This document shows, piece by piece, positions 1 to 26,647 of a stretch of DNA of 32,000 nt. Source of the stretch: an archaeon (GTDB lineage: Archaea; Asgardarchaeota; Thorarchaeia; Thorarchaeales; Thorarchaeaceae); contig JAJRZD010000020.1 in assembly GCA_024275415.1 (NCBI GenBank), forward strand, positions 57,821 to 89,820. The letters run 5' to 3'. The stretch's first letter is position 1, and each line of letters begins with the position of its first letter. Under the pieces are notes generated by a model. That model was not told the origin of the DNA and did not search any database. It saw only the letters and a program-made list of their open reading frames with translations. Position numbers and translations under genes: made by a program.

Positions 1-697
1 CAAGTAAGGCGATATCAATCAGCTGCTCTCGTGAGATGCCTAACAATCTCAAGTTCAGGTCTAAATCAATCAATTCCGGAGAGATTATCTTGAAGGTATT
101 AGTTCGTGAAACGCGTCTTTTGCCTGAAACTGAAAGGTTCCGTATCATTCTTGGACAATTATATAGGAGAGAGTCATTGTCTTGGCTTGCACTAGCATAC
201 ACCATGTTCTCCCTAGCCATCTGTGCTGCCAGCGCTTCACCCTCAGACGGAGCTTGTATCCATGGGATACCCATTGCGGTCAACAGCCGCTTGCTCTCGT
301 CAATCATCCCAGTGGTGAGTGTGGAGCTTGCCTGTGCTGCTTTTCGCGCATCATCGATTCGTCCTTCTTTCTTAGCAAGCTGCCATTCTTCAAATGCAGC
401 TTCACGAACCGCTCGCCGCCTCTCAACTTCTCCAGACTTGAGTTTGGGCGGTTCACCATCAAAGACATAAACTGGAAGTATCCCTTGTTCGAGAAGGTTC
501 ATATTGCGATAGAATATCCCGCTTAGGTGGCTAGTGACTCTTCCTTTCCGATCCATGAGGGGAGTTCCATCACGCTGTCTGATAGTGGAGAGAAATTGGT
601 ACAGGGTATTGAACGCATCTATAGCAACCTTCTTCCCTGCGAGATCAGATATTGTTATTTTCTGAGCTTGTATGATGTCAGAGAGTTTTGTCCCCAT
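1..697 (-). CDS. fen: Flap endonuclease 1 (partial, runs off the left edge; not in the ORF track)
   Basis: Manual minus-strand translation from ATG 697 gives MGTKLSDIIQAQKITISDLAGKKVAIDAFNTLYQFLSTIRQRDGTPLMDRKG...GIPWIQAPSEGEALAAQM...SQDNDSLLY. These are the hallmark FEN1 N- and I-domain motifs. Confidence 0.95.
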   Translation of the reverse strand, partial: MGTKLSDIIQAQKITISDLAGKKVAIDAFNTLYQFLSTIRQRDGTPLMDRKGRVTSHLSGIFYRNMNLLEQGILPVYVFDGEPPKLKSGEVERRRAVREAAFEEWQLAKKEGRIDDARKAAQASSTLTTGMIDESKRLLTAMGIPWIQAPSEGEALAAQMARENMVYASASQDNDSLLYNCPRMIRNLSVSGKRRVSRTNTFKIISPELIDLDLNLRLLGISREQLIDIALL

Positions 698-850
698 TGA
701 ATCCGCTCCAACACTCAGTAGGAGTGGTTTATCATATATCATTTGAGGAGTGCTTCCTAATGAGTACTCTTCGGTAAGTTTATAATATTCCCAAAGGTGG
801 CGACAGGAGACCAACACCAAATATTTGGCTCTGGTGATACTTTGTCAACA

Positions 851-1018
851 ATGAAGACGATTAGGTGCACATCGTGCCACGGTTCAATTTCTCCCAAGGA
901 GGATAGTGTAAAGATGCAATGCCCAAACTGTGGAGTTGCTACAATATGGCGTTGCGGATCATGCAGGAAGTTCTCTAACCGGTATTCCTGCCCAAACTGT
1001 GGCTTTGAGGGGCCATGA
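851..1018 (+). CDS. Small Zn-finger protein (DUF1610/HVO_2753-like)
   Basis: Four CxxC pairs (CTSC, CPNC, CGSC, CPNC) and a C-terminal GFEGP. It lies directly before aEF-1beta, a conserved archaeal pairing. ATG 851 is preferred over the track's GTG 797. Confidence 0.85.
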   Translation: MKTIRCTSCHGSISPKEDSVKMQCPNCGVATIWRCGSCRKFSNRYSCPNCGFEGP

Positions 1019-1035
1019 TTCAAGGAGAGATAGAA

Positions 1036-1305
1036 ATGGCAAGAGTGATTATCACAATTAGAGTGATGCCTGTAGATATTGATGTGGATCTAGAAGGTCT
1101 ACTTGAACAAATCAGACAGAACATCCCTGAAGGCACTGATGTTAGAGCGAATGAGATCGTGCCTGTCGCATTTGGTCTCAAGGCACTCAGGATAAATCTG
1201 GCAAGAGACGAATCGTTAGGGGGAACTGACGATATCGAAGAGGCAATCAGCAACCTTGAGGGCGTTTCACAAGTCGAGGTTGAGGTTGTTTCAAGAATCT
1301 CTTGA
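1036..1305 (+). CDS. ef1b: Translation elongation factor aEF-1beta
   Basis: RVMP..DVDL, PVAFGLKAL, GGTDDIEEAI and VSQVEV motifs. ATG 1036 follows an AGGAG-like site. Confidence 0.95.
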   Translation: MARVIITIRVMPVDIDVDLEGLLEQIRQNIPEGTDVRANEIVPVAFGLKALRINLARDESLGGTDDIEEAISNLEGVSQVEVEVVSRIS

Positions 1306-1448
1306 TAGACGAAATGCCACCTAGTTTATCTCATAACTCATAGTTTAAATTAATAATTTCCCGCCGGTGCATACCGGCCACTAACATAGTCGGTTATATG
1401 GGACAGACAAGACTCAATAGTGATAGTCTGTACACAAAGGAGATATAG

Positions 1449-3692
<2,244 letters not shown>

Positions 3693-3701
3693 TGAAGTCA
3701 A

Positions 3702-3962
3702 GTGGCACCATGGAATGCTATACCCTTAAGGAATCTGATCCTGAACATAATCCACAAACGGAAAGGGATTATCCTTGATGATGAGCTGATTCGGGCTTTG
3801 GAGAAGGAAAACGGAACAAAACCCAGTGAGGCCGAGTTGAACTCCGCCCTCCTAAAACTAGAGATAAATGGCATTGTCCATGTCAGTCAAATCACAAAAA
3901 CAAAGCGACGAATCGAGGTTATCACCGAAGCACATGAATTCCTTCATGTAGATGAAGACTGA
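3702..3962 (+). CDS. Small hypothetical protein, probable winged helix
   Basis: 86-aa ORF 9 nt after cdc48 on the same strand. Helix-helix-helix-beta-hairpin pattern (ELNSALLKLEINGIVHV). Confidence 0.7.
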   Translation: MAPWNAIPLRNLILNIIHKRKGIILDDELIRALEKENGTKPSEAELNSALLKLEINGIVHVSQITKTKRRIEVITEAHEFLHVDED

Positions 3963-3988
3963 CTGCCTATTACTAGGAGGTATGGCCA

Positions 3989-4450
3989 TTGTCGGGAAAA
4001 AAAGTACTGGCAGCTGGCAAGTTCGATATATTGCATCTCGGGCATCTGGCATATCTCGAACAGGCGAAGGAACTCGCGGGCCAAGAAGGACAACTCATTG
4101 TTGTGATTGCTAGGGATGATACTATTACACGGGAGAGAGGGGCTCCTCCAGTGTTTCCACAAGAACAGAGACGAAGACTTGTGGAGGCTCTTGATGTGGT
4201 CAACTCAGCTGTTGTGGGATACAAGACGGATGACCACACCAGAATAGTCGCGGATATCAAACCAGATATCATAGCTTTGGGGTATGACCAACTGACTAAT
4301 GTGGAGGGTCTCAAGCAAGCCATTAGATTGAAAGGACTACATACTGAGATAGTCCGGTTGAAAAAACGAAACGCGGATGGTCTTTGTTCATCAACCCTCA
4401 TCCGAAAAAGAATCATCCAGTTCTACAGAGAAAATGGGACGCCCGAGTGA
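3989..4450 (+). CDS. ribL: FAD synthetase / cytidylyltransferase-family protein
   Basis: GKFDILHLGH (HxGH) motif, VVIARD, QRRRLVEAL, PDIIALGYDQ and SSTLIR. TTG start 8 nt after AGGAGG. Confidence 0.85.
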   Translation: MSGKKVLAAGKFDILHLGHLAYLEQAKELAGQEGQLIVVIARDDTITRERGAPPVFPQEQRRRLVEALDVVNSAVVGYKTDDHTRIVADIKPDIIALGYDQLTNVEGLKQAIRLKGLHTEIVRLKKRNADGLCSSTLIRKRIIQFYRENGTPE

Positions 4451-4452
4451 AC

Positions 4453-5811
4453 TCAGATGATAAGTTCACCACGGGATTCAATCTCCTGACGTTTCCGAGC
4501 CAGAGCCTCTTGTCTATCGAACATCCACCGCCAAATTAGGAAAACGATGAATACAGATACGCCGAGTACTCCCAGATACGCATATGTCCACACACCTTGT
4601 GGGAAATGCAACAGAAGGTCGGGTAATGGTCCATTCCAGAAATATGGGAAATTAATGACGACCCCGAAGGCGTATAGAAGACCGACGATGGTAATCAGTT
4701 TAAGATATGCAATTGCCTGACGATCATCGTCAAGCAAGAAGATCAACGCCCCAAACCAGAACAGATACCAGGGCATCACCCATCGGAACGCGAATAGTAG
4801 AGTGGGTATCATATAGATATAAAGAGGTTGCAGCAGTTTCAAGCGTCCCCACCAAGAGGCCTTGAGGAATGCCTCTTTCTCCGGTAAGAATTGATGCACT
4901 GTGATGAGGATAAATGCCAGTACGAGTACCAATGGAATAAGAGCGGGATACCACTGATATGTCGAGCCCTCAGGGCCCCAGACATCCGGCGTCCCCCAAG
5001 CTAGTCCTGGAAAGAGAGGATTCACAATGAACGAGCTGTAAGAGGAGCTGTTCAAGAAATGGGATATAAGAGAATCATAGTTCTGCCCTGCCACAGCAAG
5101 TGGAACAACTGTGATCATAATAGATGCGAAGAACCAAATCAGTGATGTGGGGGCGCTAAGAAACAGGACAGGCAATGCAACGATGGAGTATATCTTCGTC
5201 TGAAATGAAAGCCCTAATGTGAACATCGCCTTGTTGTTTTGACCCTCGCTTCGTAGTACGAGTGCCATAAGCAAGAGGCAGTCTGTAAGTGGCTCAAGCT
5301 TCCCGCCGCCTGCAGACATTATCAGTCCATAGATGAAATATCCTGCAAAGAATAGACGGGCCCAACGAACCTTGTAAACCTTGTCACCTAATAGAATCGC
5401 CATCAATACAAGATTGAGATTGAACACGAGGACTAGGATGAAATTCATCCACATATGCTGAAAACCGCCCACTCCGGGAAACAGGAATGTCGCAATTGCA
5501 AAGAATATCAGTCCAAAGACGGGGTATTCATAGGTTATATTCCCAAGGTAGTCAGGCAGAGTGTGGTTCCCATCTTGGAAGTGTTCACCCATGGCTTCTG
5601 CAACCTCTGCATCATTCATGTCGTACACTGCAAATCCGTAGACCCAGAAAGCTTCCCCGTACATCTCGTTACGGTTTCGATCCCTTTGAATAACTAAGGA
5701 ATCGGCGATGGGAATAGCAATCATCGAGATAGCAAGACTAAGAATAAGGTACTTTCTCATCTCATATATCTTAAAGGAGATTGCATTTAGCATGTGATAG
5801 TCACCATTCAA
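4453..5811 (-). CDS. Polytopic membrane protein, probable GT-C fold glycosyltransferase (GT87/PIG-M-like)
   Basis: Many hydrophobic segments and an acidic extramembrane loop after TM1. YEYPVFG, FQTKIYS and MPWYLFW resemble GT-C motifs. The start may be ATG 5760. Confidence 0.55.
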   Translation of the reverse strand: MNGDYHMLNAISFKIYEMRKYLILSLAISMIAIPIADSLVIQRDRNRNEMYGEAFWVYGFAVYDMNDAEVAEAMGEHFQDGNHTLPDYLGNITYEYPVFGLIFFAIATFLFPGVGGFQHMWMNFILVLVFNLNLVLMAILLGDKVYKVRWARLFFAGYFIYGLIMSAGGGKLEPLTDCLLLMALVLRSEGQNNKAMFTLGLSFQTKIYSIVALPVLFLSAPTSLIWFFASIMITVVPLAVAGQNYDSLISHFLNSSSYSSFIVNPLFPGLAWGTPDVWGPEGSTYQWYPALIPLVLVLAFILITVHQFLPEKEAFLKASWWGRLKLLQPLYIYMIPTLLFAFRWVMPWYLFWFGALIFLLDDDRQAIAYLKLITIVGLLYAFGVVINFPYFWNGPLPDLLLHFPQGVWTYAYLGVLGVSVFIVFLIWRWMFDRQEALARKRQEIESRGELII

Positions 5812-5912: not shown

Positions 5913-7904
5913 TCAGGTGAGATAGGTCGGACAGGGCCACTCGTCACATCGTAGGCAACTTGTGCATTTGTTTTCATCAACTGCAATTTTGCCATCGACT
6001 AGATGGAGCGCGTTACGGTCACATTTTGGGATACATGAACCACAGGCTTGACAGAAAAGCACCCGTGTGACTGCACGTTCTACTTGACGAGCAAGACGCT
6101 CTATTTGGGATTCACGTTTCCCACGAATGACAAGCGAGCCTGAGCTAAAAAGGATAATCGAGGTGTTTCCTGAGCGTATCCGTAGCGCTCCCAGCTCTTC
6201 GGAGATCTTTGCAGTCCCAAAGATTCCCAATAAGGATACAGCATGTTCTAAATCAACCCCTCCTGAGAACTGCCCTTCGAGACTCAGGTCTGCAACATTA
6301 CATGGCGAAACGCCTTTGACGATCTCCAGCTTCATCTGTTCATTAGGGGCAGGCCTTGTTGCTGATATTGCAAGACCTAACTTCTCGACAAGATTCATCT
6401 GTCCGGGAGGTAGGTTCTTCCATCGCCAGAAGCCATGGGAAATCCATTCAGAAGGATACCCGAGCTTTCGAGACCATCTTCCTAAAATAGAAGTCCACTT
6501 CTGGTGAAGGTGTGGATGTGTTTCTCTGAGGCTTTCGAGTTCAGCCAACGGTGATGCAGGGCATAAATAGCATCCCATGCGGTGGTACCCTTTCTTATAG
6601 AGTTCGTTAAATGGTGCCTGCTCACGGAAGATATACAGCCAGACCTCCAATGCATTCCAGTTCTGTATGGGATTAGCAGACACTTGACCGGGCACCCAAG
6701 GGTTCATGGTCACTCTGGGCTCTATCGAGCGTGTGAAGGATTCCAGCTTCCGTTGGCCCATGAAAGAAAGACTTTTGCCGCCAAGCTCTTTGGCTATCGA
6801 TGTGGCTGCGGGTCCAAGCTTGAGGACTTTGCAACACCATCTGAAATCTCTTGCAGGAGGACCAAACGTGTTCACAGAAACCCAGAACTGCTCACCAGCA
6901 TCAGCACCTATAATGCGAGCACCCTTCAAATCTGCAAAATCACGCACATAACGCTCAGTCTCCGGAAGTTCCAATCCAGTATTCATGAAGAAAAGGGGAG
7001 GGGGTGATATTACCACCTTCTCAACAAGCAGATATGTTACCAACGAATCCTTGCCCCCGCTGAAACCAACAACGATCGGGATGTCAGGATTCTTTGCTAT
7101 GGTACGTTTGATGAATTTCATTGCCTCTTGTTCGATATTGCATAGGTCTTCTTCATTGCCGCGTATTGCATCATCCAATCCAGCAACAACAGGATTGATG
7201 TTGGGGGGCGAAGGATCTGAAACTTCCCTAATCTTGACCGCATGTCCCCTTTTCGCTCGTGCCATGTCTTCACCAGACATCCGTGCGGTTCCAACGGCAA
7301 TCACCTCTCCCCAAGTGTCAATTACCCATACCTCGTCGCCTTTTTGGATGCTAGAATCACATCCAATCACGCCGGGTACTAATAGATTGGCTCCATCCTT
7401 GAGGAAGGAAAGTACGCCGTCATCACATGACACCCAACATTCCTTGCTGACCTGAGCAATCCTCCGGCCTCCTTCAAGAGAAGGGAGGAACTTGTAATCC
7501 TGAGTTTCAATCTCGAACCGAAGCCTTCCGACGAGATGCCCATCAACTATGACCTCAAACATCGCATCCAAGGAAGGAACCTTATTTATGACAACAATCT
7601 TCTCACTAGGGATGACCGACCTTCCTGCGCCAAGTCCAAATTGAACGTCAATCGCATTGATTATCTTTGCAATATGCCCGTCCATTGCGGGGTAAGGGTC
7701 TCCGGGAGGGGATAGCTTCACCTCACGAGGAATATTATTGCAGATAGAACACTCTGTGTTTGCGATTCGGGGAATGTTGCATGTATCACACCACCAGAAC
7801 CGAATCTTGGTCAAATAAGGGGCGTGTCCCCTGCGGAACTTTCTGCGATGCTTTCGTCGTACCAGATGAATCAGTCTCCGTCCATTAGGTTGAGCGGTTT
7901 CCAT
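5913..7904 (-). CDS. PAPS-reductase-family PP-loop protein with PUA domain and C-terminal Fe-S/ferredoxin-like region
   Basis: N-terminal Cys knuckles, PUA-like GANLLVPGV..GDEV, PP-loop FSGGKDS, RWCCKVLK, GCYLCP, and C-terminal CQACGSCIPKC...CTSCLRC. The track start 7937 overlaps aor, so ATG 7904 was chosen. Confidence 0.85.
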   Translation of the reverse strand: METAQPNGRRLIHLVRRKHRRKFRRGHAPYLTKIRFWWCDTCNIPRIANTECSICNNIPREVKLSPPGDPYPAMDGHIAKIINAIDVQFGLGAGRSVIPSEKIVVINKVPSLDAMFEVIVDGHLVGRLRFEIETQDYKFLPSLEGGRRIAQVSKECWVSCDDGVLSFLKDGANLLVPGVIGCDSSIQKGDEVWVIDTWGEVIAVGTARMSGEDMARAKRGHAVKIREVSDPSPPNINPVVAGLDDAIRGNEEDLCNIEQEAMKFIKRTIAKNPDIPIVVGFSGGKDSLVTYLLVEKVVISPPPLFFMNTGLELPETERYVRDFADLKGARIIGADAGEQFWVSVNTFGPPARDFRWCCKVLKLGPAATSIAKELGGKSLSFMGQRKLESFTRSIEPRVTMNPWVPGQVSANPIQNWNALEVWLYIFREQAPFNELYKKGYHRMGCYLCPASPLAELESLRETHPHLHQKWTSILGRWSRKLGYPSEWISHGFWRWKNLPPGQMNLVEKLGLAISATRPAPNEQMKLEIVKGVSPCNVADLSLEGQFSGGVDLEHAVSLLGIFGTAKISEELGALRIRSGNTSIILFSSGSLVIRGKRESQIERLARQVERAVTRVLFCQACGSCIPKCDRNALHLVDGKIAVDENKCTSCLRCDEWPCPTYLT

Positions 7905-7927
7905 GTGATATGAATAATGGTTTATCG

Positions 7928-9721
7928 TTATGTACAAAGATTCAACCGATCCAATGTCGCCTTTGTTGGGCGTCCATTCTCATCCCATCCCCGGAGTCTA
8001 TAATACTCGGGTAAGAGCTCATCGCTGTGAGAAACCCTGTTGCGTGAGTTGCCTTCTGGAAGGGGTTGGGAGAAACGCGCAGGGAGCTTGTCATCTTCTG
8101 TAGTGAAGCCCTCTCGATTATTGAATAGTCGCTCTAAATTATAGATCCGTTCACCAATCTCAAGGAATTCTTTGCCAGTGATATCCAGTCCGGTCCCGGC
8201 TGAAAGAAGTTCGGCGTACATGTCAGGAGTCCACGCAAAGTTTGTGAACCTGCAGACCACCATCGAGTCCATCGCAGCTGAAAGGTTCTGATATAGGATT
8301 ACAAGATCCGCCTTTCCCGTGGTCTTGTCACGATCCAGAAGCACGGGATTGGCAAGAATTTCTGGACCAATCAGATAGGAGCGCAGATGACATCCACCTC
8401 TGTTCGATGTCGCATATCCGAGCGCATGCCCTTGAGCACCACGGGGATCATAAGCAGGAATCTCAAGCCCCTTTACATGCATGGCAAGTTCTGGTGCGCC
8501 ATACTTCTCTGCAAGCCTGCGAGAGCCATCGGCCAAGTCACTGCCAAGCCCACGCCGATAGGCGATATCCTCAATGACCTTGATGAGCCCTGTCGTATCA
8601 CCGAATCTCAAGGAAGAATCAAGATTCCCGCGTTCTGTGAGTTCCATTGCACATCCAATCGTGCTACCCACCGAGATGGTGTCCAGCCCTAGGAGGTTGC
8701 ATTGATGATTTGCTTCTGTAATCCATTCCAAATCATTTATGCCACATTCGGGCCCAAATGACCAGATGGTTTCGTACTCAGGGCCTCCAACCTCCTTCCC
8801 ATGGACGCGACTAATCCGACCACATCCTATTGGGCAGCCGAAACAATTGTACGTCCGTACAGAAAGACGCTCCAAGAGTTTCTCGCCAGACACGCCCTCG
8901 GCATCATTGAATGTTCCTTCTTGGAAGTTATGCGTGGGGAGCATCCCATATTCATTAATGATATTGACAAGAACAGCGGTCCCATATACTGGTAATGACT
9001 TGTTGGTAACTGCATTCTTCTTGATGAGCCGGCGCGACCGTGTCACTACCTCACTTAGGCGTTCCTTATCGGCAACCGCAACAGTCTTTGTCCCCCGCAC
9101 GACTACTGCTTTCAGGTGCTTTGAGCCCATGACTGCACCAACACCGCCCCTTCCGGCTGCTCTGTGTTTATCATTGATGATGGCAGCCATCCTCACGAGA
9201 TTCTCGCCTGCCGGACCGATGCATGATACCTGTGCCTTAGAGTCAGTAAGGTCGAGAAGCATGTCTGTGGCTTTCGCTGTATCATGTCCCCATACTTCAG
9301 AGGCATCACGCAGCTCGACCAGATCATCGTGGATCCAGAGATATACGGGCCGTTGCGACTTTCCTTCAAAGACAATGGCGGCATAACCTGCACGTCTCAG
9401 TTGTGCACCGAAGTATCCTCCGCAGTGTGAATCGAAGACGGTTCCAGTTTGAGGGGACTTTGTTACTACTGTGAACCTACCAGCTGTAGGTACAGAGGTG
9501 GCTGTGCTGGGACCCACACTAAAGATGAGTAGGTTGTCAGGTGATAATGGGTCTATACTTGGCGGAAGTCTGTCATAGAGTATTTTCACACCCAGACCTC
9601 TTCCTCCCAAGTAATTCCGATAAAGGTCATCAGGGATAGTTTCCTTGCGAATCTCACCAGTGGTCAGTGATACATACAAAATCTGTGCGTCAGAATAAGA
9701 ATGAGAAATACCTTCGCTCAA
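7928..9721 (-). CDS. aor: Tungsten aldehyde:ferredoxin oxidoreductase
   Basis: YLGGRGLG, KSPQTG, GRGGVGAVMGSKHLKA, CFGCPIGC, GPEYET, LGLDTIS and NRGGCH: the full AOR motif set. Confidence 0.95.
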   Translation of the reverse strand: MSEGISHSYSDAQILYVSLTTGEIRKETIPDDLYRNYLGGRGLGVKILYDRLPPSIDPLSPDNLLIFSVGPSTATSVPTAGRFTVVTKSPQTGTVFDSHCGGYFGAQLRRAGYAAIVFEGKSQRPVYLWIHDDLVELRDASEVWGHDTAKATDMLLDLTDSKAQVSCIGPAGENLVRMAAIINDKHRAAGRGGVGAVMGSKHLKAVVVRGTKTVAVADKERLSEVVTRSRRLIKKNAVTNKSLPVYGTAVLVNIINEYGMLPTHNFQEGTFNDAEGVSGEKLLERLSVRTYNCFGCPIGCGRISRVHGKEVGGPEYETIWSFGPECGINDLEWITEANHQCNLLGLDTISVGSTIGCAMELTERGNLDSSLRFGDTTGLIKVIEDIAYRRGLGSDLADGSRRLAEKYGAPELAMHVKGLEIPAYDPRGAQGHALGYATSNRGGCHLRSYLIGPEILANPVLLDRDKTTGKADLVILYQNLSAAMDSMVVCRFTNFAWTPDMYAELLSAGTGLDITGKEFLEIGERIYNLERLFNNREGFTTEDDKLPARFSQPLPEGNSRNRVSHSDELLPEYYRLRGWDENGRPTKATLDRLNLCT

Positions 9722-16139: not shown

Positions 16140-17669
16140 TTGGTATTGCCATATGAGGCATTCACAGAACAGAACGTGGTCGTAAAAGATGCTTCGAAGG
16201 TGGAGGTTCTTTTCGGGTTTTGTTACCCATCAACATATCGAGCTGGCATGAGCGGGTTGGCTATCCACCTATTCTATGCGATCCTGAATGCAAGAAGCGA
16301 CACTTCCTGTGAGCGGTACTTTAGGTATGATACACGATCCCCAGTCAACTCTGTCGAAACAGGAAGACCGCTTCGTGACAATCATGTGGTGGGATTCTCA
16401 CTCACATATGAAGAGGATATCCTGGGACTTGTCCAGATGCTTGAGATGGGGGGTGTCGAGATACTCGCTAATGAAAGAACCGACGAAGATCCAATCGTGG
16501 TGGTAGGCGGGCCAGTAGTGAGTGCGAACCCAGAGCCGTATGTAGATTTTGTCGATGCATTTGTCATTGGTGAAGGAGACCTTGCCATCCACAATATCAT
16601 CGATGCAGTCAGTCATTCTAACATGAGAGGCGAGGTGTTAGAGGAGATATCAACTGTCGCAGGGATATATGTTCCAGCGTATTCGACAGGCACGATATCT
16701 CGACTCATTATGCCCAACTTGGACGAGGTATTCCATCCTACAACGCAAGTACTTGCCAACACAGAAACCCGTTCCCATCTGGAGCAGGTCTTTGGAAGGG
16801 TGCTTCTTGTGGAGGTGAGCCGAGGTTGTGGACATTCCTGCAAGTTCTGCTTGGTAGGGCATATCTGTAGGCCTCGACGTGTCAGGTCAGAGGCGAAACT
16901 GAGGCAGATTATCGAGGAAGGGGTCAAACTCACAGGAGTCAATAAGATAGCGCTGATTGCATCGTCACTTGGGGATCATGACAACTTGGAGGACATTGTT
17001 GGATGGATAGTTGACAATGGATGGGGTCTTTCTACACCATCTTTGAGGGCTGACAAGGTCACACAGAACATTCTTCATCTGTTGAAGAAAGGGGGGCAAC
17101 GAACCCTAACCATAGCACCTGAAACCGGATCCGAACGTTTGAGAAAAGCAGTTGGAAAGGGACTCAACGAGCAAGCGATCTATGATGCTGTACAATTCGC
17201 AAAGAAAGCCGGTTTGCAATCGGTAAAGGCGTACTTCATCATAGGACTGCCAGACGAAACGGATGCTGATGTAGTTGCTATCGCGAGAATGACCAAGAGA
17301 TTGGCAAAAGAATCGGGATTGCGAATTACTACCAACGTGAATCCCTATATCCCAAAGGCGCAAACCCGGTGGGAGCGTGAGCCACAGCCGCCTTTGCCTA
17401 TCCTTCGTAAGAAAATCAAGGTACTCGTGAAAAGTATGCGCAACATACCAAATGCATCACTGGAAGTCCTTGATCCCAGAAGAGCAAGGATCCAAGCAGC
17501 CTTATCACTTGGGGATCAGTCAATAGGGCAGGTGATTAGACTTGCTGCCAGTTATGGAGGGCTTGGGGGATGGCGAAGGGCTGAAAAAGAAACAGGTATC
17601 TCATTCTTTCGGTTAGCAAATGATAAAGAACGGCTAAGGGGAACACTACCTTGGCATTTCATTTCTTAG
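16140..17669 (+). CDS. Radical SAM protein with an N-terminal B12-binding-like domain
   Basis: CxxxCxxC (GCGHSCKFC), GFSLTYE, VVGGP..SANPEP, DAFVIGEG, TIAPETGSERLR, YFIIGLP and YIPKAQT. Abuts the glmU stop. Confidence 0.88.
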   Translation: MVLPYEAFTEQNVVVKDASKVEVLFGFCYPSTYRAGMSGLAIHLFYAILNARSDTSCERYFRYDTRSPVNSVETGRPLRDNHVVGFSLTYEEDILGLVQMLEMGGVEILANERTDEDPIVVVGGPVVSANPEPYVDFVDAFVIGEGDLAIHNIIDAVSHSNMRGEVLEEISTVAGIYVPAYSTGTISRLIMPNLDEVFHPTTQVLANTETRSHLEQVFGRVLLVEVSRGCGHSCKFCLVGHICRPRRVRSEAKLRQIIEEGVKLTGVNKIALIASSLGDHDNLEDIVGWIVDNGWGLSTPSLRADKVTQNILHLLKKGGQRTLTIAPETGSERLRKAVGKGLNEQAIYDAVQFAKKAGLQSVKAYFIIGLPDETDADVVAIARMTKRLAKESGLRITTNVNPYIPKAQTRWEREPQPPLPILRKKIKVLVKSMRNIPNASLEVLDPRRARIQAALSLGDQSIGQVIRLAASYGGLGGWRRAEKETGISFFRLANDKERLRGTLPWHFIS

Positions 17670-18394: not shown

Positions 18395-19264
18395 ATGACA
18401 AAACAAAAACTCAATTCAACACTCACTTCGAAGCAGAGGAAGTTTATCCGTGAACTAATAGCTCCTGATCTGGCAAAACAGAACCTCGCGAGCTGGCAAG
18501 AGGCATGCAGAAATTTTGGGCCTTTCGACTATAATAAGACCACAAGGAAGATATGGTTCGAGAAAAATAAACACCGAATTCCTACAGGAAAGAAAATCCT
18601 GCAGTTCTACAATAAATGGGCAAAGAACTTGCGAAAGGAAGAAATCCTTCGGTCTGCTTCAATGTCTGCAATACGGAAAGACCTGATTGATGCTATCAGG
18701 GAAGAACAAAAGAAACAAGGAATCGACACTAACAAACTGAACGATTTTAAAATCGCCACGTTCAGTACTCTTTTGTCGTGGTCAGAGGATTCAGCGAAAC
18801 TGGAACAAGGGCCATACGAAGGAAGCAGCATGCTTCCCTCTGAGAAACGCAAAACAGGTACATCGAAACGTGGTCGGAAGGCAGCTAAAGGCAGATTTGG
18901 CCCTCCAGAAGTAGAGCTTGTAAAGGGATACGAGGTCAAAGGGAATTCACTTAAACTCGAGATAGGAATTTCGAACAATAACCTACACCCATTCCAGAAC
19001 GTGGATCTGGAACTGAATATTGATTCGAACCTCGAAGTGAAATCTGTTCGCGACTGTACGTGGATTCCATCTGAAAATAAAATCAGGATTGGGTTCCTTC
19101 CGGCCTCACTTGAAGTGTACCCGGAGGAAACAACCATCACCATCAATCTGGGAATGAAAAGTACAGCAAAGACATTCACCGTCGAGGGGGTAGTTCACTT
19201 CGATAATACCGAGAAAGGTCGCAGAGAGTCCTTAGACCTTAAGGCAATGAAAATCAAAATCTAA
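18395..19264 (+). CDS. Hypothetical protein (helical N-domain, basic linker, beta-sandwich-like C-domain)
   Basis: 289-aa ORF with GGGAG upstream and an AT-rich promoter-like region before it. I recognise no family. Confidence 0.75.
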   Translation: MTKQKLNSTLTSKQRKFIRELIAPDLAKQNLASWQEACRNFGPFDYNKTTRKIWFEKNKHRIPTGKKILQFYNKWAKNLRKEEILRSASMSAIRKDLIDAIREEQKKQGIDTNKLNDFKIATFSTLLSWSEDSAKLEQGPYEGSSMLPSEKRKTGTSKRGRKAAKGRFGPPEVELVKGYEVKGNSLKLEIGISNNNLHPFQNVDLELNIDSNLEVKSVRDCTWIPSENKIRIGFLPASLEVYPEETTITINLGMKSTAKTFTVEGVVHFDNTEKGRRESLDLKAMKIKI

Positions 19265-19992
19265 CATCCAAGTGTGGACTGACTTCGGACGTAAAGATCA
19301 GCGAACAGTTGCTTCAGATAGGAAGGGCTTGTCCATTCTATCAATTCACCGTAAGGATCTGATGCGCGTAGTGCATAACCCGCCATTATCCTCAGGAGAT
19401 CACCCTTGAATCCAGCTGCACCATGAACCTTGTGTCCATTCGCGGAGAATGTTTGAACTATCCTGTTATCTGCGGGAAACCAGACATGGTTTGTGGGACT
19501 GTCACGCATGACGAATTGGATTACTGTCGTGGATTCCTTTTCGATCCAGTCAGTACCAAGTGAAAGAAAATAGTCTTTGCCCAACGCAAGATACATGAGA
19601 TCATACTGTTCAAGACAGTGTTCTTCGAAATCGTGGGGAATGCCCAGATTCTCCGCTCGCTCTTGTAGTTCACGTTTTTTCATTCCTGAGAATGCGCAGT
19701 CATAAGGGGGAACAAGGTCATTCTCTCTCAAGAAGCCAAAACCCGCTGAGATGATATAAAAGTCAATTATGGCATCATCGATTGTTCGTAGCAGGTCGAG
19801 TCCCTTAACGAGCTCACGATTCTGATTCCCAGTGTACATGACACGAGCAGGATGACAAAGATCTTTGAATTCCTCTTGCCATCGTCGAATGTCACCTTTC
19901 GTCTGAATCTCATTGCACGTTGGACTACGAGGATGCGATGATAACTTCTTCTTCCCGCAACTTCCAACGATACAAATCCTCAAACTACTCAC
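19261..19992 (-). CDS. DUF6884/YaaA-like protein, partner of the DpdA-like transglycosylase
   Basis: ICIVGSCGKKK, PARVMYTG, YIISAGFGFL..VPPYD..F and YDLMYLALGKDY match my recollection of DUF6884-type domains at DpdA loci. Confidence 0.7.
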   Translation of the reverse strand: MSSLRICIVGSCGKKKLSSHPRSPTCNEIQTKGDIRRWQEEFKDLCHPARVMYTGNQNRELVKGLDLLRTIDDAIIDFYIISAGFGFLRENDLVPPYDCAFSGMKKRELQERAENLGIPHDFEEHCLEQYDLMYLALGKDYFLSLGTDWIEKESTTVIQFVMRDSPTNHVWFPADNRIVQTFSANGHKVHGAAGFKGDLLRIMAGYALRASDPYGELIEWTSPSYLKQLFADLYVRSQSTLGC

Positions 19993-20114: not shown

Positions 20115-21296
20115 GTGCCGTGGTGGGACGATTACGTGTCATTGCATTATGATTTCATGACAGACAGACCTCTCGATGATATCAAGGTCACTGCACATCA
20201 CCTCTATGAAGAGCCACCTTACGATGGGATTCTCGTTTCCAAGGTGAAGATAGAGGACAACAAGAAGCGCCTGAAAGAAGTTATCGACAAAGGGATTCAT
20301 GCATTCCTCGAGTTCGAGGGGCCCATATTTGGCGATTGTGGAGCTTTTGGGTATATCAACGAGAGAACCCCACCATTCGATCCAGCTGATATCGCAGACT
20401 ATTACAACTCAATAGGATTCGATTATGGCGTAAGTGTGGATCATCTAATTGTGCCAGCAGTCGATGATGAAAAGGAGTACCGCTTCGATATTACGCTCAA
20501 GAATGCAGAGAGGTTCCTCCGGCGGCATAAGGAGAAAGAATATGATTTCGTTCCTGTCGGGGCTGCGCAAGGATGGAACGCTCGTTCGTACAAGAGCGCG
20601 GTTCACGAGCTACTTGATATGGGCTATGAGTACATTGCAATTGGTGGGCTGACAAGATCACAGACACCGGAAGTCCTACGAGTGATGCGTGCAGTAAAGG
20701 AAGAGGTTGGGGCACAGAAAAACATCGGGATACACCTATTTGGTGTTGCAAGGTTGAATGCATTGCTCGAGCTGCGGTCGTTGGGATTGACCTCATTCGA
20801 TTCTGCGTCGCATCTTAGAAGAGCTTGGCTTGGCGCCAATTCGAACTACATTACTGCGAATGGACAGGGATACGCTGCATTGCGAGTACCTCAGTCGGAC
20901 AGAAGTCCGAAAGCAAAGAAAATCATCGACACACGAGGGATATCCCTCGAAGAGCTGAAGGCATACGAAGAAGCTTGTCTGACACTGATTAGATCATATG
21001 ATAGGGGAGAGGCAGAGATAGATGAGGTGCTGGAGGCCCTTCTGTGGTATGACAACCTCATGGACGATTCAAGAAATCATGGAGCCCATTACAAAAGAAC
21101 CTTGACCGATATGCCATGGCAGAAGTGCGATTGTCGAATATGTAAAGAGTGGGGAGTCGAAGTAATAATATTCAGAGGGAACAACAGGAACAGAAGAAGA
21201 GGCTTTCATAATACGAGGATATTCTATGACCAGTTTCGAAAACTACTTGCAGAAGACAGAACGGTCGATATGCAGCAACGCCTCGATGGACTCTGA
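20115..21296 (+). CDS. dpdA: DpdA-like 7-deazaguanine transglycosylase (TGT superfamily, no PUA domain)
   Basis: (YFV)PWWDDYV..YDF, PPYDGILVS, GDCGAF (catalytic Asp position), GVSVDHL, GAAQGW, IAIGGL, HLFG, SFDSAS (second Asp) and the Zn site CxCxxC-x21-H with RGNNRNRRRGFHN. The true start is probably upstream of 20115. Confidence 0.85.
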   Translation: MPWWDDYVSLHYDFMTDRPLDDIKVTAHHLYEEPPYDGILVSKVKIEDNKKRLKEVIDKGIHAFLEFEGPIFGDCGAFGYINERTPPFDPADIADYYNSIGFDYGVSVDHLIVPAVDDEKEYRFDITLKNAERFLRRHKEKEYDFVPVGAAQGWNARSYKSAVHELLDMGYEYIAIGGLTRSQTPEVLRVMRAVKEEVGAQKNIGIHLFGVARLNALLELRSLGLTSFDSASHLRRAWLGANSNYITANGQGYAALRVPQSDRSPKAKKIIDTRGISLEELKAYEEACLTLIRSYDRGEAEIDEVLEALLWYDNLMDDSRNHGAHYKRTLTDMPWQKCDCRICKEWGVEVIIFRGNNRNRRRGFHNTRIFYDQFRKLLAEDRTVDMQQRLDGL

Positions 21297-21328: not shown

Positions 21329-21872
21329 ATGAAAGCACAGGTGAGTCACTGGTTCGACGGCCCGGTAGTATTAGAATTCACAAGAAAAGACCTCAAGAAG
21401 TGGAAGCCATCTGATATGCCGATTCTTTTTGTGCCTTGCTCGAAGTACAAGCCGATACAGGAATCAAAGTCACAAGCAGATGTCCCATAGGTTCCGCAAT
21501 ATCTGTGACATGCGTATACTTTCAGAACCACTCACAGTCATCCCATACGAATGGCATGAATATCCATTCTACGAGTATCCCCCAAGGGCACTTTGGAGAA
21601 TCAATGGCGAGTCTGATAAGTTCAAGGAGCGATTGGTAAGGTTCCTCAAGAAGAACAGGCTAAATAAGTTGGGCTGCCTTTTCTTCACTCTACATCATCA
21701 CTTGATGATACTCTGGCCTTCATGGGAAGAGGCATTTGGAAACATCAACAGTCTGTTCGGTTATGCGTACACATATGCTACCAGATGGTTCTTCTTGCAG
21801 AAGATGGAACAATTGATTGACGGACTCCAGCCTAGGACGGGCGGTAAGCGCCCCTCTCTCGTGCCCATTTGA
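21329..21872 (+). pseudogene. ArcS-like DUF5591-domain gene split by a +1 frame break near 21470 (pseudogene, assembly error or recoding)
   Basis: Frame A (21329-21490) reads MKAQVSHWFDG...ILFVPCSKYKPIQESKS. Frame B from 21471 reads HKQM..FRNICDMRILSEPLTVIPYEW..YPFYEYP..LW..F..RL..FLKK. Joined, they give the PCSxxKPxxxSKSH...SEPLxxxP signature of the archaeosine synthase DUF5591 domain. Confidence 0.75.
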
Positions 21873-23232
21873 TGGTATCGGGGTCACATCGTTTGAGCTC
21901 ACGTTCGGGAAAATCACTCAGCAGGTTCCAGCCGATATCAAGAGTCTGATCGAATGATCTGTCTTCGAATTCTCCTTGTCCGATGAACTCTTCCTCAAAC
22001 CGATCCGCGAACCGCAGGTACTTCTGGTCACGATCAGTCAGTGCCTCCGAACCTACGACTGCTACCAAGTCTCGCAAGTCACGTCCTTCAGAGTAGGCAT
22101 AGTAGAGCTGTGCCTGAATCTCCTTATGGTCAAAGCGAGTCATTCCTTCACCGATACCTTCCTTCATGAGCCTGCTAAGAGAAGGTCCTGGGTCAATTGG
22201 GGGATAGATACCCCTGCGATGCAAACCTCGACCGACAATCATCTGACCTTCTGTAATATATCCTGAAAGGTCTGGAATAGGGTGGGTCATATCGTCTTGC
22301 GGCATGGAGAGAATCGGCATCTGCGTGATGGTTCCCTTCCTGCCATTGATACGACCTGCACGCTCGTAGATTAGACTCAAGTCGGTGTAGAGATATCCAG
22401 GATAACCTCGGCGCCCAGGAATCTCTGAGCGGGCCGCGCTAATCTCTCGCAGTGCTTCGGCATAGTTGGTCATATCTGTAAGGATGACAAGAACATGCAT
22501 ATCAGATTCGTAAGCAAGATATTCTGCTGCTGTAAGTGTCGCACGCGGTGTGATGATTCGTTCGATAGCAGGGTCATTTGCAAGATTCAGGAAGAGTGTG
22601 GTATGTTCGAGAGCTCCGGTTTCTTCGAATGAGTTGATAAAGTACTGTGCCTCTGTGGCAGTAATTCCCATCGCTCCAAAGACAATTGCAAAATCACCCT
22701 CTTCTCCGGGAATCTTAGCCTGACGGACAATCTGTGCTGCAATCCTATTGTGTGGTAGCCCTGATCCCGAGAAGATAGGGAGTTTCTGACCTCTCACGAG
22801 CGTGTTCAACCCATCGATGACTGAGAGACCAGTTTGGATTGGCTGCCGGGGATACTGCCGAGCATATGGGTTGATGGGAGAGCCGTAGATGTCCCAGTGA
22901 TCTTCGGCTGTAAGAGGAGGTCCTTTGTCGAGAGGATTGCCCGCCCCATCCAGAACACGTCCCAAGATCTCGGAAGAAACAGGAAGCTTCATCGTTTCAC
23001 CAGTGAATCGGGCAGCAGTCACCTCTGCATCGAGACCACTTGTTCCCTCAAACACTTGGATGACCGCCCTTCCACGACCCGTTTCCAAGACGGTTCCCGT
23101 CAAAAGGTCGCCATTTGGCGCTCGAATCTTTACGACCTCGTTATAGGCTACGTTGTGAGTTTGTTCAACAATTAGTAATGGACCACTGACATCGGATACC
23201 GTCCGATATTCGATAGAGGACTTGTTCGACAT
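21832..23232 (-). CDS. atpB: A/V-type ATP synthase subunit B
   Basis: [52 protein letters not shown] and THPIPDL. Confidence 0.97.
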
Positions 23233-23329: not shown

Positions 23330-23848
23330 TCAGAGAATTGAGGAAACGTATACGAAGGAAAGCACAGCAGCAAGGATAACACCTCGCACCATCAACGAGT
23401 GCCCTCTGGACTTGAGGTCATTCGAAGTTGGATTGAAGTATAGGATTGCACCGACCACTATGCAGATTGCCATGACACCATCACCAAACAGGACTAGCAG
23501 GGACAGGAATTCACCTTCAAGCATACCGAAGAAGCTGAGGAATGCGGCCGTGGCATCTGCTTCCGTAATAGGGTCAACACCGATGAAGCCGGCCAGAAAG
23601 TTAGCTGTCATAGGTCCTGCAAAGAAAAGGAAGACTCCGAAAAGGACTAGGCTCTTGGCAGTGCCATCACTCAATCCTGTGGCATATACCATGAAACCAA
23701 GGAGAACGAGGATGAGATATCCATGCAGTGCAAATGCATATGCAATGCTGAGAAGCGTGCGAAGGGCATTAAAATATCCTGCAAGATCAGGATCGGAACT
23801 GAGTTGCAGCATCAGAATCAATGTATCTTCACGAAGCATATCCTTCAC
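23330..23848 (-). CDS. Small polytopic membrane protein
   Basis: Four to five hydrophobic helices and an apparent internal duplication of a hairpin. Confidence 0.7.
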   Translation of the reverse strand: MKDMLREDTLILMLQLSSDPDLAGYFNALRTLLSIAYAFALHGYLILVLLGFMVYATGLSDGTAKSLVLFGVFLFFAGPMTANFLAGFIGVDPITEADATAAFLSFFGMLEGEFLSLLVLFGDGVMAICIVVGAILYFNPTSNDLKSRGHSLMVRGVILAAVLSFVYVSSIL

Positions 23849-23883
23849 AGTACAATGTCAGCGCCATCCAATTTAACCGCCAC

Positions 23884-24453
23884 TTATCGTAACTCTGCCT
23901 TCAACTTTTGGAAATCCTGGTGCATGAGAGCTCGCGTCTTGGGAAATCGAAGAGCAGCAGCAGGATGATAAGTGAGAAAATAGGTCAGTCCTTTAGCCTC
24001 GTGGAATCTCCCATGAGCCTCGCTAAGACGCCACGGACCTATGACTGACGATATCGCCACACTTCCAAGAAGTACTATGATCTTGGGAGAAACGATCTCA
24101 ATTTGATTGTCAAGGAAATACATGCATTTGCCAATCTCATCTCTATGAGGGGTTCTATTCCTCGGCGGACGGGACTTTAACACGGAAGTGATGAATACTT
24201 CCTCACGTTGCAGTCCTATCTCATTCAGCATCTCTGTCAGAAGGCTACCGGATCGCCCAACGAATGGACGACCCGTCATATCCTCTTGGGCACCCGGAGC
24301 CTCACCAATGAACATGACTTTAGCATCGAGAGGACCTTCACCTGGCACTGCCTTTGTTCGGGATGTGTGCAGAGAACATCGTGTGCAGGATGCAATCTCA
24401 TCATGTAGTGCTTTCAATGCTTTTTTGCGATTCATCATATTCAAGAAGAGCAC
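23884..24453 (-). CDS. udg: Family-4 uracil-DNA glycosylase (Fe-S)
   Basis: CTRCSL, VPGEG, FIGEAPG, GRPFVGRSG, RPPRNR.P and TYHPAA. Confidence 0.93.
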   Translation of the reverse strand: MLFLNMMNRKKALKALHDEIASCTRCSLHTSRTKAVPGEGPLDAKVMFIGEAPGAQEDMTGRPFVGRSGSLLTEMLNEIGLQREEVFITSVLKSRPPRNRTPHRDEIGKCMYFLDNQIEIVSPKIIVLLGSVAISSVIGPWRLSEAHGRFHEAKGLTYFLTYHPAAALRFPKTRALMHQDFQKLKAELR

Positions 24454-24492: not shown

Positions 24493-26295
24493 TTAAGCAC
24501 TGGGGACAATTGCTCCAGCCTCATGTATCTCCTTGTATAATGCTTCGAACTCTTTCTCCATCTTGGACTCGATAGCATCCATTGTAGCGTCGTAGCTGTC
24601 CCATGGCGCAATCTTCATCCGAGCGATGTTATCGAGGCAACTGAACTCAAGGATTCGTCGCACACTGACTCCCATATTCACTGCTTCAGCCATCTTTCTT
24701 GAGAAGTTGATGATGATCCTGAGCATTCGATAGGTCTTTCTGATCGGGCAGAAAGTATCAATCTCGTGGATGGCACTTTGAGTAAGGAAGTCTTCCTTAA
24801 TCATTCGTGCAGCCTCAAGGGTAGCACGTTCCGATTCTGGTAGTGCGTCAGGACCTACAAGCTGGACAATCTCTCTAAGCTCTTGATCCTTCTGTAAGAG
24901 CGCCATTGCTTCTTTAACCAATAGTGGCCAATCTTCACCGAGCTCTTTCTTGTGCCAAGATTCCAAGTTGCCATGATAAAGCGAATAGCTGGTGAGAGCA
25001 TTGATAGCAGGGAAGAACCGCCTTGCAGCAAGGTCTTTGTCTAGTGCCCAGAACACCTTCACAATTCGCAGTGTTGCTTGCGTGACAGGCTCTGAGAAGT
25101 CACCACCAGGTGGTGAAACAGCACCACAGAGAGTAATCGAACCAGTTCGGTCCTCAGACCCAAGTGTCTTAACTCTGCCTCCACGCTCATAGAATTGAGC
25201 CAATCTTGAGCCGAGATATGCGGGATACCCTTCCTCGGAGGGAAGCTGTCCTAGACGGCCTGAAATCTCTCGCAATGCTTCTGCCCAACGAGAGGTCGAA
25301 TCAGCCATCAATGCAACATCATAGCCTTGATCCCGGAAGTACTCGGCGATGGTCACAGCCACATAGATAGATGCCTCTCGTGCAGCAACAGGCATATTGG
25401 ATGTGTTTGCAATGAGGACTGTGCGCTCCATGAGAGGTCTACCGCTCTGTGGGTCGTTAAGATGAGGCCACTCCTCAAGGGCTTCGGTCATCTCATTTCC
25501 GCGCTCGCCACATCCTACATATACAACGACTTGAGCGTCAGCCCATTTTGCAAACTGATGAAGGGTGACAGTCTTTCCAGTGCCAAATCCACCAGGAATC
25601 GCTCCCGTTCCACCTTTTGCTTGAGGCATGAATGTATCGATAACACGCTGACCGGTGATAAGCGGTATCTCAAGAGGGACACGTTCCTTGAACGGGCGTC
25701 CGACACGGACAGGAGTCTTTTGCATCATGATGACATCATGGACATCTCCATGTTCGTCCTTGACCTTACAGATTGGTTCAACAATGGTATACTCGCCTTT
25801 GGACACGATTTCGACGATCTCGCCTTGTATTCCATGAGGAATCAGTATCTTTGAAGTGATAATACCTGTTTCGGGAACTACGCCAATAACGTCACCAGGT
25901 TCGACCTTATCTCCAACCTTGACAGAAGGATTGAATTCCCATTTCTTTTCTCTATCGAGCCCCTCAATCGTCAAACCACGTGTTATGAAATCTCCAGAGA
26001 GGTTCTTGAGCCCTGGGAGAGGACGTTGAATCCCATCATATATGGAGCCAAGAAGACCAGGGCCTAGCTCTACAGACAGTGCGTCACCAGTTGAAACGAC
26101 CGGTTCCCCAGGGGACACGCCAGATGTTTCCTCATAGACCTGAGCTGTGAACTCTTCATCACCGACCTCGATCACTTCACCAATGAGTTGTTCATTTCCT
26201 ACACGGACGACTTCATACATACGCACACCTGGGATTCCTGAACATCGTACGACAGGACCGGCGATACTTTCAATTTTTCCAGTAGTTTTGGTCAT
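24493..26295 (-). CDS. atpA: A/V-type ATP synthase subunit A (no intein)
   Basis: Walker A GGFGTGKT, YVGCGERGNEM, DSTSRWAEALRE, EEGYPAYL and VSPPGGD. ATG 26295 follows GAGGAG; the track's 26346 start overlaps atpF. Confidence 0.97.
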   Translation of the reverse strand: MTKTTGKIESIAGPVVRCSGIPGVRMYEVVRVGNEQLIGEVIEVGDEEFTAQVYEETSGVSPGEPVVSTGDALSVELGPGLLGSIYDGIQRPLPGLKNLSGDFITRGLTIEGLDREKKWEFNPSVKVGDKVEPGDVIGVVPETGIITSKILIPHGIQGEIVEIVSKGEYTIVEPICKVKDEHGDVHDVIMMQKTPVRVGRPFKERVPLEIPLITGQRVIDTFMPQAKGGTGAIPGGFGTGKTVTLHQFAKWADAQVVVYVGCGERGNEMTEALEEWPHLNDPQSGRPLMERTVLIANTSNMPVAAREASIYVAVTIAEYFRDQGYDVALMADSTSRWAEALREISGRLGQLPSEEGYPAYLGSRLAQFYERGGRVKTLGSEDRTGSITLCGAVSPPGGDFSEPVTQATLRIVKVFWALDKDLAARRFFPAINALTSYSLYHGNLESWHKKELGEDWPLLVKEAMALLQKDQELREIVQLVGPDALPESERATLEAARMIKEDFLTQSAIHEIDTFCPIRKTYRMLRIIINFSRKMAEAVNMGVSVRRILEFSCLDNIARMKIAPWDSYDATMDAIESKMEKEFEALYKEIHEAGAIVPSA

Positions 26296-26323
26296 GACAA
26301 TTATCTCCTCTGCATTTGGGGGA

Positions 26324-26647
26324 TCACACATTGATTTCGATTCCAACGGCCCGACGTATTAGCTCTCTCAGCACAGTTTCATATGCACCAGTCGAGCCTT
26401 CTCTATCAGGGATAAGCAGAATCACAGGAACTGGAGCCTCTGAGAGCTCCAAAATGGTATCCTCCACCTGCATTGCAAGGGGCTCAGTGATGATAATCAA
26501 GCCCATTCTGGGGTCTCTGAAATAGTCAAGCAGGGCTTTTCGAATCTCATTTACATTGTTCGGAACAGAACTCTCTTGAACACCGACCATTCGGAAACCA
26601 GTGACTGTGTCACGGTCACCGATGATGGCTATCTTATCACTGACCAT
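26324..26647 (-). CDS. atpF: A/V-type ATP synthase subunit F
   Basis: KIAIIGDRDTVTGFRMVGV, GLIIITE and PVILLIP. Confidence 0.92.
   Translation of the reverse strand: MVSDKIAIIGDRDTVTGFRMVGVQESSVPNNVNEIRKALLDYFRDPRMGLIIITEPLAMQVEDTILELSEAPVPVILLIPDREGSTGAYETVLRELIRRAVGIEINV

Follow-up and report, generated by a model that had tools for sequence, protein, structure and literature searches.

Introduction

The canonical archaeosine synthase is ArcS (subunit alpha), which forms the ArcS–RaSEA complex; the canonical enzyme was reportedly described by Phillips et al. in 2010. Modification of DNA with 7-deazaguanines is documented for bacteria (the Dpd system), phages and archaeal viruses. The bacterial modification module consists of DpdA, DpdB and DpdC (Thiaville 2016; Gedara et al. 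2023, PMC10164549), of which DpdC, a member of DUF328, converts dPreQ0 in DNA to dADG (PMC5699537, PMC10164549). ArcS2 proteins, namely STSV2_16 and a protein of Vibrio phage nt-1, are represented by the core domain only (Hutinet et al. 2023, PMC10516641), and in E. coli, ArcS2 of phage nt-1 together with DpdA2 gave rise to dG+ in plasmid DNA (PMC10516641). No description of a cassette of DpdA and an ArcS2-like gene in cellular archaea was found in the literature search.

Such a cassette, in which the ArcS2-like gene is interrupted, is present in the genome of a representative of Thorarchaeaceae (3.5 Mb, 127 contigs, 92.9% complete). The window, that is, the whole stretch of 32,000 nucleotides that was analyzed, corresponds to positions 57821–89820 of contig C123.

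Gene Content of the Window

The neighbours of the cassette are archaeal housekeeping genes, encoding CDC48, Hef, SRP54 and subunits A and B of the A-type ATPase. The gene dpdA (20115–21296, plus strand), encoding a DNA guanine transglycosylase of the bacterial DpdA type, is intact; its product matched the NCBIfam model NF041059 (DpdA) with 410 bits at a cut-off of 200, covering model positions 7–405 of 406, and the PADLOC DpdA model with 371 bits. The NCBIfam score is comparable to those of intact relatives (414–427 bits), and the gene upstream of the break, named dpdA in the preliminary description, is a true DpdA gene.

The gene u243 (19261–19992, minus strand), intact and divergent from dpdA, encodes a distant DpdC/DUF328-like protein (PADLOC DpdC, E 2.6e-7). 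All ten of the ten family members analyzed matched PADLOC DpdC models across the N-terminal ~110 residues, with a best E of 1.3e-11; weak matches to Pfam DUF6884 and YaaA were under their cut-offs, and comparison with PDB sequences gave no match, the DpdC likeness being detected with the PADLOC models alone. The product of u243 is a candidate for a second tailoring enzyme, converting dPreQ0 to dADG. The gene u289 (18395–19264, plus strand), identified as travelling with u243 from gene neighbourhoods, is separate from u243 in the window and convergent with it. Both genes are also kept in Thorarchaeal genomes lacking dpdA.

No match to the product of u289 was found in Pfam, NCBIfam, PADLOC or PHROG. 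In its AF2 model (pLDDT 86.5), the N-terminal half is helical and the C-terminal half forms an Ig-like beta-sandwich; the nearest PDB folds, matching the sandwich only with probability 1.0, are the adaptin-ear/GAE, COPI appendage and TRAP domains. A role as a DpdB analogue was considered and rejected, since the protein had no PDB sequence match and its fold, helical with an Ig-like sandwich, is not ParB/DpdB-like.

Several other genes of the window were annotated. Between atpB (21832–23232) and atpA (24493–26346), positions 23330–24453 encode a family-4 uracil-DNA glycosylase and a 172-aa protein, an arrangement shared by every Thorarchaeal relative that was examined, whether the dpdA cassette is present or not. 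A 674-aa protein (5913–7937, minus strand) with a TGT-C2-like patch, a PUA domain and a PAPS-reductase/PP-loop domain matched an NCBIfam PRK13795-type ‘hypothetical protein’ model with 605 bits and looks like an RNA-modification enzyme. A gene for a B12-binding radical SAM protein (16140–17669), TIGR03960-like with 290 bits, under the cut-off of 462, is kept upstream in all relatives together with NTP-transferase/hexapeptide and DUF2095 genes; no link of this gene to the dpdA cassette was seen.

The Small ArcS-Core Gene

A small gene in two frames is located between dpdA and atpB. ATG at 21329, separated by 32 nt from the stop codon of dpdA (21294–21296), starts frame A, which consists of 53 codons and reads ...VPCSKYKPIQESKSQADVP before TAG at 21488–21490. 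The +1 frame, ORF 21429–21872, reads ...SHKQMSHRF...RILSEPLTVIPYEW..., with SEPLTVIPYEW downstream of SHKQMSHRF, and is terminated by TGA at 21870–21872. Translation thus reproduced all coordinates of the preliminary description, namely, the start codon, the spacing from dpdA, the stop of the first frame and the extent of the +1 ORF. The 5' piece of the gene (21329–21490, plus strand) includes PCSKYKPIQESKS, after which out-of-frame residues lead to TAG; it is aligned with residues 1–47 of intact homologues. The 3' piece (21471–21872, plus strand) extends in the +1 frame from the codon CAC of the motif histidine to TGA and shows 55–65% identity with intact homologues across ~130 residues; its final 41 nt are shared with the 3' end of the convergent atpB.

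Both pieces belong to the DUF5591 domain. Residues 16–49 of frame A matched positions 3–37 of the DUF5591 profile (E 2.6e-3, 18.1 bits), and residues 11–80 of frame B matched positions 33–104 (E 6.9e-4, 19.9 bits); since adjoining stretches of the profile are matched, the two pieces are successive parts of one domain rather than two ORFs adjacent by chance. The read-through product obtained by a one-base skip (P0004) scored 36.8 bits on Pfam DUF5591 (PF17884), above the gathering cut-off of 26, which bears out the earlier proposal of a hidden DUF5591/ArcS-core gene. The restored product, ~181 aa, as had been estimated, is consistent with the lengths of intact relatives (166–180 aa); DUF5591 is its sole Pfam match, and Nt, C2 and PUA domains are absent. 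PF17884 was also present in nine of nine database homologues. The NCBIfam ArcS models NF040592 and NF053620 gave 13.5 bits each against cut-offs of 440 and 600, and searches of PHROGs and PADLOC profiles with the ArcS2-like protein gave no match.

Structural comparison gave a similar picture. The family profile of the small gene had a sole match in PDB, 2q07 (AF0587, an ArcS-family protein), with E 6e-8 and the motifs aligned. The fold was assessed with the closest intact homologue, P0005, which is 66% identical to the window product and stands in for it; its AF2 model (pLDDT 89.9) had 2q07 as the sole Foldseek match (E 7e-5, probability 1.0, TM 0.57).

The genome also encodes its own tRNA ArcS of 642 aa, with DUF5591, C2 and PUA domains, on a separate contig (C20, locus L001), and its own arcTGT of 687 aa, on a different contig from the window. 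As the full-length ArcS and arcTGT are encoded separately, the small gene is an extra paralogue. By its sequence, it is a stand-alone DUF5591/ArcS-core gene, paralogous to tRNA archaeosine synthase. A radical-SAM gene directly follows the canonical ArcS gene (G000:C20, L001 2-2955) and is a candidate for the RaSEA partner in archaeosine synthesis.

In the phage and virus collection, matches to the small gene were found solely in the Sulfolobus viruses STSV1, STSV2 and STSV4. Residues 9–143 of the closest homologue, almost the whole protein, showed 29% identity with STSV2_16 (E 6e-15), the gene of which is located directly after a TGT/DpdA-like gene. As it encodes an isolated core domain and has dpdA as its partner, the small gene is better labelled ‘ArcS2-like’ than ‘ArcS-like’.

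Intact Homologues and Position of the Break

The comparison with orthologues proposed in the preliminary description was carried out, and none of the 11 homologous genes, which come from genomes and metagenomes of Thorarchaeota/Asgard, is interrupted; they encode proteins of 166–180 aa. Homologues with 55–66% identity are represented by the relatives G004, G013, G014, G028, G031 and G123 and by nine database proteins. The pair of dpdA and the small gene was also found in G013, G014, G028, G031 and G123 and on the contig of P0005. The family is rare: one 50%-identity cluster was found among 1.84 billion representatives, with only three matches at E <= 1e-30, and the search of the genome collection gave five loci, all of them Asgard.

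All homologues contain the motif PC-x3-KPIQ-x-S-x-[S/T]-HK, in which an invariant Ile occupies the position of Tyr in the canonical motif. In the window, the motif PC-x3-KPY-x2-S-x2-H is not contained in one frame: PCSKYKPIQES-K is encoded in frame A and (S)H in frame B. The break is located at 21467–21470, plus strand (contig ~C123:79287-79290), where DNA and protein alignments show AAGT, two nucleotides short. It is flanked by Ser46, encoded by TCA at 21464–21466 in frame A, and by the motif His, encoded by CAC at 21471–21473 in frame B, so that four bases stand in place of the two codons (x and Ser/Thr) kept by every homologue. The 2-nt gap is unique to the window in the DNA alignment with five homologous genes and is likewise seen in the alignment with DNA of the closest relative, six homologous DNAs overall. 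Joining of the pieces by a +1 skip gives a protein that is one residue short in the alignment, at the [S/T] position. These alignments confirm that the gene is broken within its signature motif, as had been noted from the sequence of the window.

Without repair, translation is out of frame past ESK(S) and terminates seven codons on; the product is devoid of the motif His and of the remaining 70% of the protein (~130 residues downstream). At least four 2-nt repairs are equally parsimonious, namely, AAG TCA CAC, AAG AGT CAC, AAA AGT CAC and AAG ACT CAC, yielding ESKSHKQ or ESKTHKQ. The repair TCAC[AC]AAG put forward in the preliminary description correctly reflects the deficit of two nucleotides and is a valid option; it is one of these equal repairs and is not singled out by the alignments. 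The closest relative has TCA AAG ACG CAT, which suggests that the Lys codon was kept and two bases were lost from the next codon.

Nature of the Break

Since the gene is intact in every relative, the break is an ordinary 2-nt frameshift and not a case of recoding, whether the gene is a recent pseudogene or the consensus is in error. We infer, rather than observe, that the lesion is real and not an error of the consensus, and the same applies to the chemistry and the DNA target of the cassette. The most likely reading, and a moderately probable one, is that the gene was inactivated by a genuine mutation of recent date, in a cassette undergoing loss across the Thorarchaeal family.

The distribution of the cassette is consistent with this reading. 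It is located between u243 and atpB in G013, G014, G028, G031 and G123, and in part in G004, and is absent from G003, G005, G011, G020 and G027, in which u243 directly adjoins atpB. A decayed locus was found in G022:C22 (L019 3611-4343), with a truncated u289 homologue (residues 17–167) followed by just the last ~75 residues of DpdA. In the genus mate G004, the contig C27 starts within the ArcS2-like gene (L004/L017 3-503), and DpdA was not found in this genome, which is 91% complete; strains that differ in the presence of the cassette may account for the break of the assembly at this site. The cassette is patchy, decaying and labile among the relatives.

Substitution patterns were also analyzed. 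The window copy retains all 58 family-invariant residues and has no further stop. At columns that are otherwise invariant it carries four singleton changes, three of them radical (F52S, L62R and P121L), while most other copies carry one. Terminal branches relative to the sister G013 were 1.4x for the small ArcS gene and 1.8x for DpdA, against 0.9–1.2x for u243, u289 and atpB; because DpdA is also faster, the higher rate is not specific to the small gene. The relative-rate test against the genus mate G004 gave 20:6, 21:12 and 16:14, with p of 0.006, 0.12 and 0.7 depending on the outgroup, so that the signal is outgroup-dependent and is taken as a weak hint only.

A genuine mutation has to be weighed against an artefact of assembly or consensus, in which the gene of the organism is intact and two nucleotides were lost in sequencing, assembly or polishing, or a minority variant was taken as the consensus. 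This is a serious alternative, though somewhat on the improbable side. The source is a metagenome-assembled consensus of 127 contigs (MAG, 92.9% complete), dpdA and the DpdC-like neighbour are intact, and the lesion is a single one, with the invariant residues kept and no second stop, a state that fits a very young mutation equally well. A second assembly of the same strain was absent from the collections searched: a pattern scan of metagenome contigs for the same-strain allele, with 0–2 extra bases allowed at the break, gave no match, and exact database look-ups of ORF A, ORF B (with two starts), DpdA and u243 gave no record, u289 alone being on record, from one NCBI contig, that of the window itself. 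However, the 2-nt gap lies outside any long homopolymer, which is an atypical error for short-read or polished long-read assemblies. The other window genes compared with relatives align at full length with no disruption of the frame, which indicates that indel errors are uncommon in the contig. The mild signs of relaxed constraint and the repeated loss of the cassette in relatives also argue against an artefact and for a genuine mutation.

Programmed recoding by a +1/-2 ribosomal shift, or phase variation of the small gene by repeat slippage, is very improbable. In its favour, the catalytic motif itself is where the break falls, and the two frames are open around it; however, none of the 11 homologues requires a shift, and a +1 shift would cost the invariant S-x2-H spacing one residue. 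Re-pairing after a +1 or -2 slip is not possible on TCA-AAG-TCA-C, and no slippery site competent for re-pairing was seen in TCAAAGTCAC. The fold of 87 nt of downstream RNA was not better than that of shuffled sequences (z = -0.28). With no slippery site, no downstream RNA structure and no shifted relative, programmed recoding is very unlikely, and the ranking of a dinucleotide loss above recoding in the preliminary description is upheld. The possibility of phase-variable switching, also raised there, finds no basis in the sequence, as the local repeats, just A3 and (CA)2, are far too short.

A functional split gene, in which the 53-aa N-terminal peptide and the product of the C-terminal ORF (from TTG 21429 or ATG 21480) assemble into an active enzyme, is hardly conceivable. 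Both pieces are open with possible start codons, but the cut lies inside the catalytic motif, and the C-terminal ORF begins past the His (ATG 21480) or else bears a nonsense leader of 13 residues. The gene is in one piece in all relatives, and neither piece of the window copy is on record as a called protein.

DpdA Modules of Asgard Archaea and Proposed Pathway

DpdA above the cut-off was found in 19 of 301 sampled Asgard genomes. Four loci from families other than that of the window were compared. In two of them, the u243 and u289 homologues are fused into one ORF of ~520–535 aa directly upstream of dpdA (L039 9156-10760 and L041 5170-6732). In the remaining two, a u243-like ORF is located ~3 kb from dpdA in one locus, and a weak match is located directly upstream in the other; positions L040 10894-12075 and L042 6602-7117 were noted alongside L039 and L041 in this comparison of u289, u243 and dpdA. 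The ArcS2-like gene was found at none of the four loci. Judging from this gene content, the Asgard module appears to consist of DpdA and a DpdC-like/u289 partner, and the ArcS2-like gene appears to be a Thorarchaeal addition.

Other Dpd genes were searched for as well. DpdB was not detected in the genome with the models NF041060 or PDLC02811, neither of which matched in the control genomes, and none of the restriction genes DpdD–K was found in the window. The search of the genome, 92.9% complete, for QueC with Pfam gave just weak partial PP-loop matches and no canonical QueC; a QueD-like gene is present.

L028 (Promethearchaeota Bin_342, 3-5308) encodes a more distant DUF5591-only protein of 195 aa; its gene is divergent from that of a 404-aa TGT-family protein and has the genes for NurA and HerA after it. 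This arrangement may represent a further pairing of a TGT-like gene with a small ArcS gene, in a defence-like context.

Homology to viral ArcS2 and the gene order best support a pathway in which DpdA is followed by the ArcS2-like enzyme. In the intact relatives, DpdA would put preQ0 in place of guanine in DNA, after which the DNA-bound dPreQ0 would be amidated to dG+ by the ArcS2-like enzyme; the DpdC-like neighbour could alternatively yield dADG. In the window genome, two bases appear to have been lost within PC-x3-KPI-x2-S-x-[S/T]-H, with dpdA and the DpdC-like gene still intact. Provided that the module still functions, modification of the DNA would end at dPreQ0 or dADG and not at dG+.

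A broader reading, speculative and on balance unlikely, is that 7-deazaguanines are introduced into the cell's own chromosomal DNA in Thorarchaeota and other Asgard archaea by means of a minimal module without DpdB and restriction genes, composed of a bDpdA-type DpdA and a DpdC-like/u289 partner, to which an ArcS2-like gene is added in Thorarchaeaceae; loss of the ArcS2-like step in this genome would shift the mark from dG+ to dPreQ0 or dADG. If true, it would be the first cellular archaeal case of 7-deazaguanine DNA modification, and the DNA ‘epigenotype’ would vary between related strains, for example, in an arms race with viruses. Should the modules be active, these Asgard archaea would carry hypermodified guanine in their own DNA, and the patchy presence, the remnants and the broken copy would record ongoing gain and loss of the modification.

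The frameshift itself matters mainly for annotation, and the context of the cassette matters more. Because the broken gene is invisible to ORF callers, an assessment of the DNA-modification potential of the genome would overlook it.

Comparison with Known Systems

The closest described counterpart of the small gene is viral ArcS2. Both are represented by the C1/DUF5591 domain only (~170–185 aa), are located directly 3' of a gene of a DpdA-family transglycosylase and contain the motif PC-x3-KP-x3-S-x2-H. Unlike viral ArcS2, the small gene is chromosomal and syntenic between the DpdC-like gene and atpB in a cellular Asgard archaeon, and its partner is a bacterial-type DpdA (NF041059) without DpdB. 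Its family has Ile in place of Tyr in the motif, and the window copy is frameshifted.

With canonical ArcS, the small protein shares the catalytic C1 domain and the motif, showing 33% identity across ~98 residues with the genome's own ArcS, but it is devoid of the TGT-like N-terminal domain and of the C2 and PUA tRNA-binding domains. AF0587 of Archaeoglobus fulgidus (PDB 2q07), the sole solved structure matched, is likewise an ArcS-family protein without the N-terminal domain; with 306 aa, it is ~125 residues longer than the small protein.

The bacterial Dpd system resembles the locus of the window in the presence of a bDpdA-type transglycosylase with a DpdC-like (DUF328-related) neighbour and in the predicted product line from dPreQ0 to dADG. 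In contrast to it, the locus of the window contains an extra ArcS2-like tailoring gene, a match to DpdB was not obtained in a weak search, and the likeness to DpdC is weak and N-terminal. Judged by homology, the small gene is accordingly a chromosomal archaeal addition to the known ArcS2 kind.
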